A stretch of DNA of 64,000 bases. Source: Candidatus Eiseniibacteriota bacterium. GTDB lineage: Bacteria > Eisenbacteria > RBG-16-71-46 > CAIMUX01 > VGJL01. The stretch spans positions 224,001 to 288,000 of the forward strand of contig CAWBWI010000002.1 in the NCBI GenBank assembly GCA_963792585.1. Direction: 5' to 3'. Positions 17,455 to 23,586 of this stretch are shown here, piece after piece. The first letter of the stretch is position 1. Each line of letters begins with the position of its first letter. Position numbers and translations under genes: made by a program. The notes under the pieces are model-generated. The model made no database searches, was not told the origin of the DNA, and saw nothing but the letters and a program-made list of their open reading frames with translations.

Positions 17455-17603
17455 TTCCACCGGTTGTCCGCCCTGTAATTGTGGGTCGAGGCCGGATTGG
17501 CATGCCTCTCGTTTGCGGCGCGCCGGTTGGCCTTGCCGACGGCGAAGCGGGTACGCCCGCTTCGCCCGACGGCATCTCAGACGAAGAAGTTCGAGGAGAC
17601 CCG

Positions 17604-19238
17604 ATGCGCATCCTGTTCATCTGTCCGCGCTTTCCCGATTCGTTGTGGAACTTCCGAGGCATCGAGAAACTCGTTGGCGTGCAGTCCTCGCAGGCGCCGA
17701 TCGGGCTGGCGACGGTCGCCGCCCTCACTCCGCCTGAGTTCGATGTCTCGCTGGTGGACGAGAACCTGGATCCGATCGACTTCGAGGCGGCATGCGACGT
17801 CGTCGCAATCTCGTGCTTCAACGTCCAGTGGTCGCGCGCGCTCGAGATCGCCGGCGAGTTTCGGAAGCGCGGGCGCCTGATCGTGATCGGCGGTCCCTAC
17901 CCGACCCTCTGCCCCGAACGCTTCGTGGGCGTCGCCGACGCCCTCTTCGTGGGAGAGGCTGAGTACACCTGGCCGAGATTCTGCCGGGACCTGCTCGAGG
18001 GCAGGACGCCGGACTCCACCTATGAACAGGAGCGGGGGAAGGTCAAGATGACCGACTCTCCCATCCCACGTTACGAGCTGTTGTCAGCGGAGAGATATCT
18101 CTATCACTATGTCCAGACCACGCGGGGCTGCCCCTTCCAGTGCGAGTTCTGCGACATCATCGTGACCGACGGCCGCGTCCCCAGGACCAAGACCGTGGAG
18201 CAGGTGATGAACGAGGTGGAGACGATCCGCCGGCTCGGGGCCCGGTACATCTCCTTCTCCGACGCCAACCTGATCGCCAACCCGAAATACGCCGAGCGAT
18301 TGCTCACCGCGCTGAGGGATTTCGGCGCCGCCAACGGCTACCCGATCCGCTTCTCGGGGGAGTTGACGCTGAACGTCGCGGAGTTCCCGAAGATCCTCGA
18401 ACTTCTGCGTGACAGCAATTTCGAGAGCGTCTTCATCGGTGTGGAGTCGCCGCGGTCGGAAAGCCTCCTTGAAGCGGGAAAGGGACAGAATGTTCGCGGA
18501 TCGCTGATCGATCGCATCCGAACGGTTCAGTCCCACAACCTGCTCGTGATCGCCGGGATGATCGTCGGCTTCGACACCGACGACGTCGGGATCTTCCAGG
18601 ACACCTTCGACTTCCTGCAGGATGCCGGCATCGCCTTTACGACCGCCGGGGTGCTCTTCGCCATCGAACACACACCGCTGCACACGCGCCTGCAGAACGA
18701 GGGCCGCCTCCGGGAGTTCGATATCAGCAAGGCGCAGGTTCACGGGAGCGCCGATCTCAACTTCGTGCCCAAGGGAATGACGGCCGAGGAGTTGCTGCAC
18801 GGATACCGATGGATGATCCGCGCCCTGTACCGGTACGAAGCCTACGCGGAGAGGCTGGTGCGCGGGTTGGAGGCGTACGGCCCGACTCCGGCCGCCGCCC
18901 GGGGATCCGCAAAGCAGCCGGGAACAAAGCAACTTGGCGCGGTCGGGCGGATCCTTTCCTACTTCTTGTGGACGCGGGACGCGGCCAGGCGGCGGTTCTT
19001 CTTGAGAACCGTGTGGCGGGTCATGCGGCGGCGTCCCTCCATGCAGAAGCTCGTCATCGCCGTGACCTACATGACGGTCCACAAGCACTTCCATGAGTAC
19101 GTAGAGCGCATCCACGGCGAACCGGAGACCTCGGACCGCCAATCCCCGTTTTCGGTGGCCGGGGGAGCAAAGCTCCCGGTCCGAGCGGTTGCACGCTTGC
19201 GCGCCTCTCGGGCGCCGGCCGACACCGTGAGCGTGTAG
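17604..19238 (+). CDS. Cobalamin-binding radical SAM protein (HpnP-like/DUF4070 type)
   Basis: N-term B12-binding domain (PIGLATVAALTP, GGPYPTLCP), CxxxCxxC motif RGCPFQCEFC, GMIVGFDTD. GAGGAG RBS. Confidence 0.88.
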   Translation: MRILFICPRFPDSLWNFRGIEKLVGVQSSQAPIGLATVAALTPPEFDVSLVDENLDPIDFEAACDVVAISCFNVQWSRALEIAGEFRKRGRLIVIGGPYPTLCPERFVGVADALFVGEAEYTWPRFCRDLLEGRTPDSTYEQERGKVKMTDSPIPRYELLSAERYLYHYVQTTRGCPFQCEFCDIIVTDGRVPRTKTVEQVMNEVETIRRLGARYISFSDANLIANPKYAERLLTALRDFGAANGYPIRFSGELTLNVAEFPKILELLRDSNFESVFIGVESPRSESLLEAGKGQNVRGSLIDRIRTVQSHNLLVIAGMIVGFDTDDVGIFQDTFDFLQDAGIAFTTAGVLFAIEHTPLHTRLQNEGRLREFDISKAQVHGSADLNFVPKGMTAEELLHGYRWMIRALYRYEAYAERLVRGLEAYGPTPAAARGSAKQPGTKQLGAVGRILSYFLWTRDAARRRFFLRTVWRVMRRRPSMQKLVIAVTYMTVHKHFHEYVERIHGEPETSDRQSPFSVAGGAKLPVRAVARLRASRAPADTVSV

Positions 19239-19275: not shown

Positions 19276-21138
19276 TCAGTTCATCAGAGACGCGATCTTC
19301 GCCTCGGCATCCGCGTGCAGGGTCGGCGGCGCCCCGAAGAAGGTGGCCGTCGAGCGGCCTTCGCGATCGAAGAGAAGCAGGGTCGGCAGAGCGCTCACGT
19401 CGCCAAAGGAGCGCGCTGCCTCCGGAGTGCCCATCGCCCAACGGAGGTCTTGTCCGAGCCCGCCGACGAATGCGCGAACTTTTCCTGGATCCGACTGGAC
19501 CGCCAGCGCGAGCACGACGAGGCGGTCTCCGTATTGCCGCTTCAACCCCCCGAGCCAGCGGAGCGTGGTTCGACATGGGGGGCACCACGGAGCCCAGAAA
19601 TCCACGATGACCACCCGCCCACGGAGTTCCTCACGGGTGATCGGCACGCCCTCGAGATCCGTCAGGCTGAAGTCGGGGAGATCGGTGATTCGGGCGTCGG
19701 CGGCCGGTCTCGCCTCGCGTCTGGCCTCTTCCTGTCGACCTTCGAGAATCAGGCCGATCGTACGGGAGAGATCGCCACGGAAGCGGGCATGGCTCTCCGG
19801 CGTCTGGAGCGGGGCGTATCGACCCCCCGACTCCGACTCGCCCTTGCCGTAGAAGCCGAAGTCGTTCGGCGTGGCGACCAGCACGTCGTCCACGAAGATC
19901 GCGGGGTAGCGGGTCACCCCGAATCGCTTGGCCAGCTCCGAGTCGCCGTAGTTCTCCTCGACGAACCGCGCTTCTCCGCCGAACTCCTTCACCACGCCCT
20001 GAGCCAGCAGACCTGCCGGATCGGAGAGGTTTCAGGTGTAGGGCCAGCGAACGAGCGTGACGGTCACCCGCGGTGTCGGCTTCCCGTCTGGTGGTGGCGC
20101 CGGCTCGAACAGGGCGAGGTAGCGGGGCAGGACATCGGTGTCGACGGCAATCGCGACGGCAGATGCCGTGTCGGCCGTCGAACCCGCGAGGTCCGCCTGC
20201 GCGATCTCCAGGAAGAGCCGACCGAGCGTGTGATCCACCTCGCCGGGCGACAGACGCCGATCCCACTCCACCAGGCGCGCCCTCATCTCATTCGCGTCGA
20301 CCCCCGCCCCGTTTCCGCGGATGGGAGCGAAGCGGAGGGCCGCCTGCAGGTAGCGGAGCGCCGCGCCATGGCGAAGCCCGGCAGCATTCAGTTCTCGGGC
20401 TTCCTTGAGGCTCGAGCCGAGCGTGATGAACTCGGCATGGCGGTCGATCGAAGCCGGTGGACGATAGGCGCGGAGCACCGCGTCCTCGAGGGCGTCGAGC
20501 TCGGGGTCGAGCGGCCGCAGTTCCCGGACGGTCGGTCCGGGGGGGATCGAGAGGGTGCGGCAGAAGGCCGCGAGATCGCGTTGCGCGCGCGCATAGCCCA
20601 GGTAGAAGAAGCCGGAAGCCGGGTCCGTGGCCCGTTCGAAATCGACGCTCGCCTCATAGTAGACCTTCACCTGGGGGAGGGCCGTCTCCAACAGCGCGCG
20701 CACTGCGGCCGGATGCACATCAACCTCGGCATCGGGCGAGATCGTCGTGAGCTCTGCCGCCAAGTCCGACCCCATCCGCTTCCACTCGGCAAGGAATGCG
20801 GTCGAATCCCGGCTCTCCGCGGCCGGGATCCCCTCCACGTACTTCGTTGCCGCGAGGTTCCCCTGCGCTGCAACCAGGCGGGAAAGGGCGAGCCAGCGGC
20901 GCCCGTCGTGAAGCGCCTCCGCCGCACGCTCCAGCACCGGCCCGCTGACCTGCTTGACCTGAGTCCACATCTCGTCTGTAGACGGATTGTCCTGGATGTA
21001 GGAACTCCAGCGCGCAATCTCCGCCTCGATGGGGTCGCGCACGGGCGCCCCGTCACCGCCCGCCGAGATGGCGGGGATCGGCAGAAGGCAGGCCACTAGG
21101 GTCGCGCCGGACAGGAACCTCCTTCGCACAAAGCGCAT
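19276..21138 (-). CDS. Selenoprotein (620 aa): Tat-like signal + helical domain + thioredoxin-like UxxS domain + TlpA/ResA CxxC domain; UGA at 20032-20034 read as Sec
   Basis: ORFs 20032..21138 and 19276..19995 are in frame and separated only by one TGA. Read-through gives VTVTLVRWPYT-U-NLSDPA...ELAKRFGVTRYPAIFV (Trx fold) and later VDFWAPWCPPC. A SECIS-like hairpin follows the UGA. Confidence 0.85.
20004..20019 (-). promoter_or_regulatory. Bacterial SECIS element
   Basis: mRNA reads UGA AAC CUC UCC GAU CCG GCA GGU CUG CUG G. The hairpin is CCGGCA-GGUC-UGCUGG. Its core GCAGGUCUGC starts 15 nt after UGA, as in the E. coli fdhF SECIS. Confidence 0.8.
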
Positions 21139-21197: not shown

Positions 21198-23252
21198 TCA
21201 CCAGATGCTCACCCGCTTCGACTCCTCGCGATACATCTTGTCCCCCGGCTTCACGCCGAAGGTCGTGTAGAACTCCGGGATGTTTGGAAGGGGACCGTTG
21301 ACGCGCAGGAAGTCAGGGGAGTGCACGTCGGTCATGATGAGTTGGGCGAGCATCTCGGGGCGCATGTGTCCCAGCCAGGAAAGGGAATAGCCGAGGAAGA
21401 AGCGCTGGTCCGGGGTGAGGCCGTTGATCACCTCGCCGGTCTTCCACTGATCGGTCTTCTTGAAGGCGTCATAGGCGATCACGACCCCGCCGAGGTCGGC
21501 GATGTTCTCGCCAAGGGTGGCGAGCCCGCGCACGTGCAGGTCGCCTACGACGAATTCGTTGAATTGCTCCACCAGCATCTGCGCCCGTTGGGCGAACTGC
21601 GAGGAATCGGCGGACGTCCACCATGGGCGCATGTTCCCATACGCGTCGTACTGCCGCCCCTCGTCATCGAAACCGTGGGTCAATTCGTGACCGATCGTGG
21701 ACGCTCCCGCGTATCCGTAGAGGATCGCATCGTCCAGGAGCGAATCGGGAACCCCCGGCACGAAGAAGATCGCCGCGGGGAGCACGATCTCGACCTTCGA
21801 ACCGTCGTAGTAGGCGTTGTATGTCTGCGGCGTCATCGACCACTCGGTCAGATCGACCGGTTTGCCCAGCTTGTTGGCCCCATAGCGGAACCACCACTCG
21901 TTGACCCGCAGCTGATTGCGAACGTACGAGTCGGTCTCGATCGAGAGGGCGGAATAGTCCCGCCAGCGATCCGGATAGGCAACCTTCCGCCCGACGCGGC
22001 CGAGCTTCTCGAGGGCCTTCTCCTTTGTCGGCTGGCTCATCCATGTCAGTCTCCGGATCCGGTCGCCGTAGGCGGTCACGATCTCTGCCTCGAGTTTCTC
22101 GTAGCGCGCCTTCGTGGCGGGCGAACAATACTTCCCGACCCAGACCTGGCCCAGGAGTTCCCCAACCGATCCCTCCGTGGCCTCGAGAACCCGCTTCCAC
22201 CGGGGGCGCTGCTCCGTCGTGCCGGTCATGAGGGTGCCGTAGAACCGGAAGTCCTGCCTGTCAAAGGGAGTGCTCAAGTGGTCGGCGAGGGTGTTGATGA
22301 CGCTCCAACGGAGGTAGTCCTTCCACGCCGCGAGCGGAAACGCGTTGAGCGTCGAGTCTGCGCGCGTGAAGAATTCGGGCTGGCCGATCACGAGCGAGTC
22401 GAGGGGTGGGATCCCCATCAGCCCGAGCTGCTCCCTCCAATCGATCGAAGGGGTGAGCTGCGACAGTTGATCCATCGACATCTTGTTGTAGTTCGCGTAT
22501 GGATCGCGCCTTTCCTCCATCGTGCGGGACGCTTCCGCGAGCGAGGTCTCGATCGAGAGGATCGAACGGGCGGCCTCGCGCGCGCGCGCTTCGTCGTCGC
22601 CGAGAAGGCGGAACATCGCCGCGACATGGTCCGGATACGCCTCGCGGATCTTCTTCGTCGTGGGATCGTCGGCGAAATAATAGTCCCGGTCGGGCAGCCC
22701 GAGACCGCCCTGATGGAGGAACACGACGTGGGCGGCGCTGTTCTTGTCGTCCTGTCCGATGTAGAAGCCATAGAGGCTGCGAATGCCAATCACACGCAAA
22801 GCCGCGACGGTCCGAAGCAACTCGTCGCGGGATTGGATGGCGGCGATCCGGTCGAGCTCGGGCCGGATCGGGGCAATGCCTTGCGATTCGATCGAGGCGG
22901 AGTCCATGCCCGCAGTCCAGAAGTCGCCGACCTTCTGTTCGTTGCTCCCCTTCACGGCCCGCTTGGCGGCTGCCGCCTCGCAGATCTCCCGGAGCTGAAG
23001 GTAGATCTCCCTCTGGATCTCTTTTCCGATGCCCCAGTACCGCTCGCTGGGAGGTATCGGGTGGTCCTTGATCCACGCGCCGTTGGCATGGAGGAAGAAG
23101 TCGTCGCCCGGTTTGACGGTGGGATCCATGTTGCGAACGAGCGGGTCGATCGCCGGCGGCAACTTCGGTCCGGCTCCGACGGGCGCGACGACGGCGAATG
23201 CGGCGAACAGAACCAGACCTGACGTGACCCAAGCGGACCAGCGGCAACCCAT
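21198..23252 (-). CDS. pepO: M13 family metallopeptidase (PepO/neprilysin-like)
   Basis: Signal peptide, PGDDFFLHANGAW, GLGLPDRDYY, NAYY, IGHELTHGFDDEG, TLGENIADLGG and DVHSP motifs. Confidence 0.93.
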   Translation of the reverse strand: MGCRWSAWVTSGLVLFAAFAVVAPVGAGPKLPPAIDPLVRNMDPTVKPGDDFFLHANGAWIKDHPIPPSERYWGIGKEIQREIYLQLREICEAAAAKRAVKGSNEQKVGDFWTAGMDSASIESQGIAPIRPELDRIAAIQSRDELLRTVAALRVIGIRSLYGFYIGQDDKNSAAHVVFLHQGGLGLPDRDYYFADDPTTKKIREAYPDHVAAMFRLLGDDEARAREAARSILSIETSLAEASRTMEERRDPYANYNKMSMDQLSQLTPSIDWREQLGLMGIPPLDSLVIGQPEFFTRADSTLNAFPLAAWKDYLRWSVINTLADHLSTPFDRQDFRFYGTLMTGTTEQRPRWKRVLEATEGSVGELLGQVWVGKYCSPATKARYEKLEAEIVTAYGDRIRRLTWMSQPTKEKALEKLGRVGRKVAYPDRWRDYSALSIETDSYVRNQLRVNEWWFRYGANKLGKPVDLTEWSMTPQTYNAYYDGSKVEIVLPAAIFFVPGVPDSLLDDAILYGYAGASTIGHELTHGFDDEGRQYDAYGNMRPWWTSADSSQFAQRAQMLVEQFNEFVVGDLHVRGLATLGENIADLGGVVIAYDAFKKTDQWKTGEVINGLTPDQRFFLGYSLSWLGHMRPEMLAQLIMTDVHSPDFLRVNGPLPNIPEFYTTFGVKPGDKMYREESKRVSIW

Positions 23253-23586
23253 CTTCTCCTCCATTCCGCGCAAAGACAGCACTCTTCGCACAGAATAGGG
23301 AACCGAACGTCACGGGGCCAGAGAGCGTGTTTGCGAACTGCGGATTCGGACGACAATATCCGTAAGGCCTTTCCTAATCGCTCGGCGACCTCGGGGCCGG
23401 ACCGACAGGCGCCGAACCCGTAATTGCTGCATCTGTTTCGAGTTATCGGCCGGGCGGGCCGAGATTGCTGTCCCCCCGCGCAGGCGGGGGAGGGGCCGAT
23501 CGAAGCCCGAGTTGGCGAACCCGCTGGACAGAATGCCGGACTCGGGAGCGTTTCCTCCCGGATGCGCCCCGGATATACTGCCGGCC

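Follow-up and report, generated by a model that had tools for sequence, protein, structure and literature searches.

A 620-codon reading frame with one internal TGA

The window (the whole 64,000-nucleotide stretch of DNA that was analysed) carries on its minus strand a gene that gene callers present as two pieces, a 368-aa ORF at 20032..21138 and the downstream remainder of the same frame (Table 1). Translation of the frame from 21138 to 19276 gave 368 residues up to VTVTLVRWPYT, a single TGA as codon 369, and then a stop-free run of 251 residues, which begin NLSDP, take in RFGVTRYPAIFV, RYPAIFV and DFWAPWCPPC, and end at the true stop (19278-19276). This agrees with the initial annotation, which had placed the end of the ORF at a TGA in the active-site position of a thioredoxin (Trx) with the frame open beyond it. 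As set out below, the internal UGA is almost certainly a selenocysteine (Sec, U) codon, and the two annotated pieces are therefore taken as one 620-residue protein; the single read-through chain that had been proposed has full-length counterparts in homologs with Cys at this site (P0123-P0126). No promoter or terminator consensus was found for the gene. It is flanked in the window by a same-strand M13 peptidase gene (21198-23291, minus strand) 59 nt upstream and by a convergent B12-binding radical SAM gene (17481-19238, plus strand), neither of which is a family-wide neighbour.

Table 1. Coordinates of the features discussed; positions are those of the window except in the last two lines, which refer to the genome of the window (G000).
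Feature	Position	Strand	Remarks
Whole gene, 620 aa, Sec at residue 369	19276..21138	-	True stop TGA 19278-19276
SD-like GAGGTG, 4 nt 5' of the ATG of gene 19276..21138		-	
Predicted signal peptide, about residues 1-27	21058..21138	-	h-region in 201/209 homologs; pLDDT < 50
All-alpha domain, about residues 34-345, 15 predicted helices	20104..21039	-	Model pLDDT 89
Thioredoxin-like Sec domain, about residues 356-470	19729..20073	-	Strand, W-P-Y-T-U-N-L-S, helix; R-Y-P at putative cis-Pro
In-frame TGA, inferred selenocysteine codon U369	20032..20034	-	TGA at 179/180 distinct sites; Cys in 4 protein homologs
SECIS hairpin CCGGCAG-GU-CUGCUGG	20004..20019	-	nt +16 to +31, U of UGA = +1
TlpA/ResA-like domain, about residues 484-620	19279..19689	-	WCPPC at 19587-19573
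Second candidate family, locus in G000	G000:C1:1777334-1777912	-	TGA at 1777540
Second candidate family, other G000 locus	G000:C5	+	TGA at 107461

The TGA is conserved among homologs

With the N-terminal 368 residues as the query we obtained 1027 homologs among 8000 scored candidates; among the N-half matches listed (120, including the query) the end reads RWPYT in 118 and RWPFT in 2. A profile search gave 769 clusters at 50% identity, and the same end motif is found in 128 of the best 150 profile clusters, the others being mostly fragments or frameshifts. Of 215 genome loci and 461 metagenome loci, the best 80 of each kind were fetched (79 distinct ones for the metagenomes). Every sequence that covers the Sec column has TGA there (158/158; the 159 loci and the window make 160, and 2 loci end earlier), and 135 of these continue into a WCxPC domain, 21 are truncated at contig ends and 2 are frameshifted. 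Since the true stops of family genes are mixed (n = 132: TAG, 69; TGA, 48; TAA, 15), the invariant TGA at the Sec column is more than chance. Overall, 180 distinct sites (related rather than independent loci, and a count that leaves out one unpublished genome) comprise 179 TGA and 1 CGA; TAA or TAG, which the initial annotation had named as evidence against itself, was looked for and occurs at none of them. Similarly, a class-wide search showed TGA in 45 of 46 matches, the remaining match not spanning the site. The single CGA (Arg) belongs to L174 (G005:C101, a 2.2-kb contig), which has an intact SECIS and a long tree branch, and may reflect decay or error.

Cys stands at the Sec column in the four full-length proteins P0123-P0126 (protein records, codons not seen), three of which diverge from the hairpin-encoded peptide; this is the pattern of TGA or Cys, with conservation on both sides, that had been predicted. 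In a quick-method tree of low resolution (81 rows; 37 of 78 branches open), from which no donor or direction is claimed, the Cys homologs take four separate positions among the TGA rows. The sequences suggest that Sec is the usual state of the family and Cys a sporadic one.

The Sec machinery for which a check had been proposed is present in the genome of the window (G000, 84% complete): tRNA-Sec (selC), selA and selB, both above cut-off, and selD, itself with an in-frame TGA. Among carriers of the family, selA is found in 11 of 12 from the window's own phylum and in 10 of 10 acidobacterial genomes tested; because the baseline is high (182/206 own-phylum and 68/81 acidobacterial genomes), this co-occurrence is non-discriminating. 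Sec use is near-universal in the phylum of G000, as selA in those 182 of 206 genomes and in 116 of 121 high-quality ones indicates. A relative of about 92% identity spans the gene in one DNA sequencing run (best share 0.20; 40 of 172 differences shown), and the TGA region is crossed by an RNA-library contig, which as a contig cannot show transcription.

It is extremely improbable that the TGA encodes another residue (Trp, Gly or Cys) through a variant code, or that it is a sequencing error. The CGA of the G005 relative would fit such a reading, but the gene itself terminates in TGA, and independent assemblies from several phyla have TGA at one column together with a SECIS, tRNA-Sec being present.

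A constrained hairpin follows the UGA

The fdhF-like SECIS that had been proposed at the same distance from the UGA is borne out by a shared 10-mer and offset, by covariation and by the fit to the bacterial SECIS (bSECIS) model. The 10-mer, GCAGGTCTGC, begins 15 nt past the end of the UGA, and the offset is identical in E. coli K-12 fdhF (NC_000913.3). Both genes have this identical apical element within the coding frame, whereas the proteins are unrelated and about 30% of the members of the new family differ from fdhF in carrying a compensatory A-GU-U form. There are 21 copies of the 10-mer in the genome, just one of them 18 nt from the start of an in-frame TGA. In 142 distinct rows the third positions +21, +24, +27 and +30 are fixed in 136, 137, 142 and 142, unlike upstream third positions, which are roughly evenly G or C. 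Judged from these alignments, nt +16 to +31 are constrained beyond what the protein needs.

The 7-pair helix is paired in 99.6% of cells (76 sequences). Its GU-closing pair swaps between G-C (53) and A-U (22), turning Gly to Ser, a swap that may represent few events, and another pair alternates between A-U and G-U (38/38). This level of pairing and covariation was reached by 0 of 500 shuffles, and slid controls were all far lower. Fitted to the bSECIS model that we used as the criterion (PMC13188914, section 5), the element has the loop GGUC 18 nt after the UGA on a 6-bp stem at -11.8 kcal/mol. The folding energy is not better than that of shuffles (z -0.7 to +1.3) and alone is unremarkable, so the case for a SECIS is one of conservation and covariation, not of stability. 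Searching plasmid DNA with the SECIS region returned 18 weak partial matches, none informative.

A putative U-x-x-S thioredoxin-like domain is followed by a TlpA domain

Residues 356-470 are predicted to run in the order strand, Sec loop, helix, strand, helix, RYP, two strands and helix. At the family cut-offs of Pfam and NCBIfam (June 2026) this Sec domain has no match, and its profile matches Trx/PDI weakly (E 0.04-0.1). In the second-ranked profile alignment Ser372 aligns with the second Trx Cys, and the top-ranked alignment implies another register; the U-x-x-S/C register is settled by G240, which reads T-U-T-L-C at the Sec site and so has U-x-x-C. The U-x-x-S register given in the initial annotation is upheld by this variant. 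The residue three positions after the Sec column is Ser in 179 of the 180 distinct sites and Cys in 1. Thr precedes Sec in 120 of 122.

For the C-terminal domain, a CxxC TlpA domain had been called, and here Pfam Redoxin (PF08534) matches above its cut-off (E 2e-12; 47.6 bits vs. 26.6), W-C-x-P-C is invariant in the TlpA domains of the family, and VIA aligned 137 residues to 3gl3 (Z 19.6, rmsd 1.8). The domain is like that of TlpA, ResA and DsbE (WCPPC; VIA Z 17.7 to ResA 2f9s). In contrast to those proteins it is fused behind the Sec-Trx and helical domains, the whole-protein NCBIfam scores fall below their cut-offs (ResA, 53/170; TlpA, 47/230; DsbE, 20.5/123 bits), and Thr stands three residues after CxxC, a position at which ResA-type proteins presumably have Glu. 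The full-length AlphaFold2 model (pLDDT 90, pTM 0.88), obtained with a patchwork alignment of 5 full-length rows, 30 junction fragments, 37 C-halves and 48 N-halves, is compatible with packed domains.

The helical domain matches no family or clear fold

The helical domain had been called unrecognised, and it remained so by HMM, Foldseek and VIA: the domain scores below the cut-off of every Pfam and NCBIfam (June 2026) family, Foldseek with the domain model returned nothing at E <= 0.001, and the best VIA result (Z 10.9, rmsd 2.2 across 74 residues) is a generic three-helix bundle. There is also no match to PDB sequences (1 row, E 0.7), and hhalign detected no internal repeat. In the ESM Atlas the domain falls with its own unnamed clusters and with OmpL37 at 0.86, which we treat as a lead only. 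Its conserved residues look mostly structural. In the motif PPxSIxxH, H234 is conserved in 122 of 124; of the four split-locus helical partners read (see below), three have the motif in degenerate form, so that it is less likely to be catalytic. Cys193 was considered as a resolving Cys and rejected, being present in 65 of 124, with 51 of 124 helical domains lacking any Cys. Stand-alone helical proteins (P0246, P0264) occur, in addition to those of the split loci.

The helical and Sec domains form the constant unit

Four of the 12 carriers in a sample of acidobacterial genomes described below (G240, G259, G295 and G330) have two adjacent genes in place of one. The first codes for a helical protein, matched by the profile at E 2e-42 to 2e-52, and the second for a fresh signal peptide, V-x-V-T-L-V-R-W-P-Y-T-TGA, Trx and TlpA; in three of these genomes the stop of the first gene overlaps the start of the second. 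In the class-wide search, 45 of 301 genomes of one acidobacterial class were found to carry the family (G233 included), and G715 represents a fifth split form. G250, a further candidate for a split form, was set aside because it has a one-base frameshift and no second signal peptide. In G703 and G640 the chain ends after the Sec domain, and there is no CxxC gene within the next 1.5 kb. In each of the 18 divergent or split loci examined a helical domain is present, either within the same chain or encoded immediately upstream. From the split and TlpA-less loci it therefore follows that the helical and Sec domains are the constant unit and that TlpA is optional. The initial annotation had counted the finding of the parts unlinked elsewhere against itself; the parts do prove separable (5 split and 2 TlpA-less loci), the breaks lying between domains rather than at the TGA.

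These loci also bear on the reading in which the TGA is a true stop, the locus then holding a 368-aa helical gene overlapping a Trx-TlpA gene that restarts at GTG 19995, and the hairpin having another role. Such an arrangement matches the gene-caller annotation, and helical proteins do stand alone (P0246, P0264 and the split loci). The Trx domain would, however, lose its first strand and active loop; the natural splits lie about 20 residues earlier and keep VTVTLVRWPYT-TGA in the second gene behind a new signal peptide; there is no TAA or TAG in 180 sites, and Cys read-through homologs exist. We thus consider a true stop very improbable.

Most genome loci (75/80) are labelled Acidobacteriota or its classes or orders, the remaining five comprising one record each from Planctomycetota, Binatia and Kofleriaceae and two without a name. 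A sample of 301 genomes from the phylum of G206 (Acidobacteriota) contained 12 carriers, among them the unpublished G233, on which no conclusion here depends, and all 12 have TGA. Within the window's own phylum (206 genomes) the family occurs in 12 genomes scattered in the tree, a distribution that would be compatible with transfer and does not show it. No relative was found in the viral contigs searched. There is no conserved neighbourhood (the largest cluster covers 17 of 158 loci, with mixed side and strand), and the neighbourhood therefore gives no substrate clue. Two copies of the gene occur in one locus (L109, L111) or in one genome (G116, G779). A gene that, from its sequence, we take to be cystathionine gamma-synthase/lyase-like lies close to that of the selenoprotein in L203, L208, L216 and L219, four of the 18 divergent loci.

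Export

The signal peptide had been described as twin-arginine-like. An RRxF/L-like motif is present in the 620-aa protein itself but, even by a loose pattern, in only 21 of 209 homologs, and the description does not hold as a family trait. Since the hydrophobic h-region is conserved (201/209) while RRxF/L is not, ordinary Sec-pathway export is more likely. As far as sequence can tell, the 620-aa protein is likely exported and its signal peptide is probably of the Sec-pathway type.

A possible exported monoselenol reductase

On balance we lean, by a modest degree, towards the protein being an exported monoselenol reductase in which Sec369 would be resolved by the fused TlpA domain, itself fed by DsbD. 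SelB-tRNA(Sec) would bind the hairpin, leading to insertion of Sec369, and the signal peptide would export the protein. The Sec369 selenolate would then attack an oxidised sulfur target (a protein disulfide, sulfenic acid or mixed disulfide), with the helical partner domain perhaps aiding substrate binding, the simplest role for a constant partner. Because the resolving Cys is replaced by Ser, an outside dithiol would be needed to release the Se-S intermediate; this could be the TlpA WCPPC in cis or, where TlpA is absent, another envelope thioredoxin. DsbD/CcdA would re-reduce TlpA. A DsbD-family gene lies in G000 (G000:C5:about 62900-64700) and is apparently frameshifted (two frames) in the assembly. 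As TlpA is absent from G703 and G640, recycling in cis is not obligatory.

We infer by analogy that the TlpA domain may recycle the Sec site. In PilB a TlpA-fold domain recycles MsrB intramolecularly (PMC6210582, section 3), a precedent for a fused recycler. Neisseria PilB is an exported protein of several domains, one of them with a TlpA-fold dithiol that serves a fused catalytic domain, as would be the case in the protein described here, and the analogy concerns only how the two would work: PilB has MsrA/MsrB, whereas here the putative catalytic domain has a Sec-Trx fold and not an Msr one, and the domain order is another.

As an alternative, the protein could be a small-molecule peroxidase or reductase (GPx/Prx-like), with Sec369 oxidised by a peroxide-type oxidant and re-reduced by TlpA, and the helical domain structural or an anchor. 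U-x-x-S and U-x-x-T do occur in the peroxiredoxin-like, GPx-like and OsmC-like selenoproteins entered in Table 1 of PMC13188914, and the Thr before Sec is near-invariant. We nevertheless judge this to be unlikely: the Prx motif PxxxTxxU, as given in that source, is absent from the site (W-P-Y-T-U-N-L-S), the Sec domain is nearer to small Trx/PDI domains than to the extended Prx/GPx fold, and an obligate 310-aa partner is not explained by a small substrate.

We hold as quite unlikely a chaperedoxin or trap (CnoX- or ERp44-like), in which the helical domain would hold unfolded envelope proteins and U-x-x-S would tie up their cysteines in lasting protective Se-S bonds that TlpA resolves later. 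CnoX is cytoplasmic. The combination of Trx with an all-helical domain and no resolving Cys recalls YbbN/CnoX as presented in PMC10998233; the mostly structural look of the conserved helical residues and the separability of TlpA would also fit. Against it, Foldseek, VIA and HMM gave no TPR or chaperone match (an unlisted family is possible), and the near-universal use of Sec over Cys would suggest catalytic turnover. The family also departs from YbbN/CnoX in having Sec, a signal peptide and a further domain of the TlpA type.

Beyond the reductase that we favour, we tentatively raise the possibility, doubtful at present, of a selenoenzyme outside the cytoplasm that requires both the helical and the U-x-x-S domain as its two parts, has a substrate chemistry of its own that is so far undescribed, and uses TlpA as an optional recycler. 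On that reading, the product of UGA termination under selenium limitation might function alone, because it is nearly the same as the exported helical protein of the split loci.

Relation to known selenoproteins

Sec at the N-terminal nucleophile of a Trx-like domain is a feature that the family shares with PDO/AhpF-NTD (TIGR02187), SaoT (NF040730), TsoX (NF045809), WAxxUGC (NF041054) and Prx-like UxxS proteins. Scores against the curated HMMs of the first four lie far below their cut-offs (best 13.4/185, 13.5/65, 13.4/52 and 28.3/300 bits). Table 1 of PMC13188914 (119 families) holds no entry with an RWPYTU-type motif, a large helical partner or this architecture, and a literature search by topic and by motif, which had as its scope sources other than the family table of BSepDB (PMC13326102), found no description of the family, the motif leading to unrelated papers only. 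The initial annotation had not recognised this architecture as a characterised family, and no curated family at cut-off or description was found here. We conclude that this is a real, uncatalogued family of Trx-fold selenoproteins, new in its architecture and modularity, with a helical partner domain that belongs to no known family.

With 769 clusters at 50% identity, and carriers among 45 of 301 genomes of one acidobacterial class, the family is a large addition to the bacterial selenoproteome, whose members public gene calling splits in two. Sec is retained almost without exception, so that this redox system of mostly uncultured bacteria, which is apparently exported, depends strongly on Sec. 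Its natural variants (split, TlpA-less, UxxC and Cys) are ready constructs for studying the extracytoplasmic recycling of a monoselenol thioredoxin and the role of the helical domain.

Other candidate selenoproteins in the genome

A second, unrelated candidate selenoprotein family was observed in G000, of about 190 aa and probably exported, with a TGA after a PG-x-G-x-G-like motif. It has two loci in this genome (C1 and C5, handled as L220 and L221; Table 1) and a conserved GACTG-GGTC-CAGTC hairpin, and there is no Pfam or NCBIfam match. Matches occur in 20 of the 206 phylum genomes, and 22 of 25 matches have one TGA; a paralog in G004 has TGC and a decayed hairpin. Finally, at G000:C3:1036040 (plus strand) an in-frame TGA within WWDNIVFT-TGA-ENMLFF is followed by a hairpin, in what may be a MerB-like selenoprotein.
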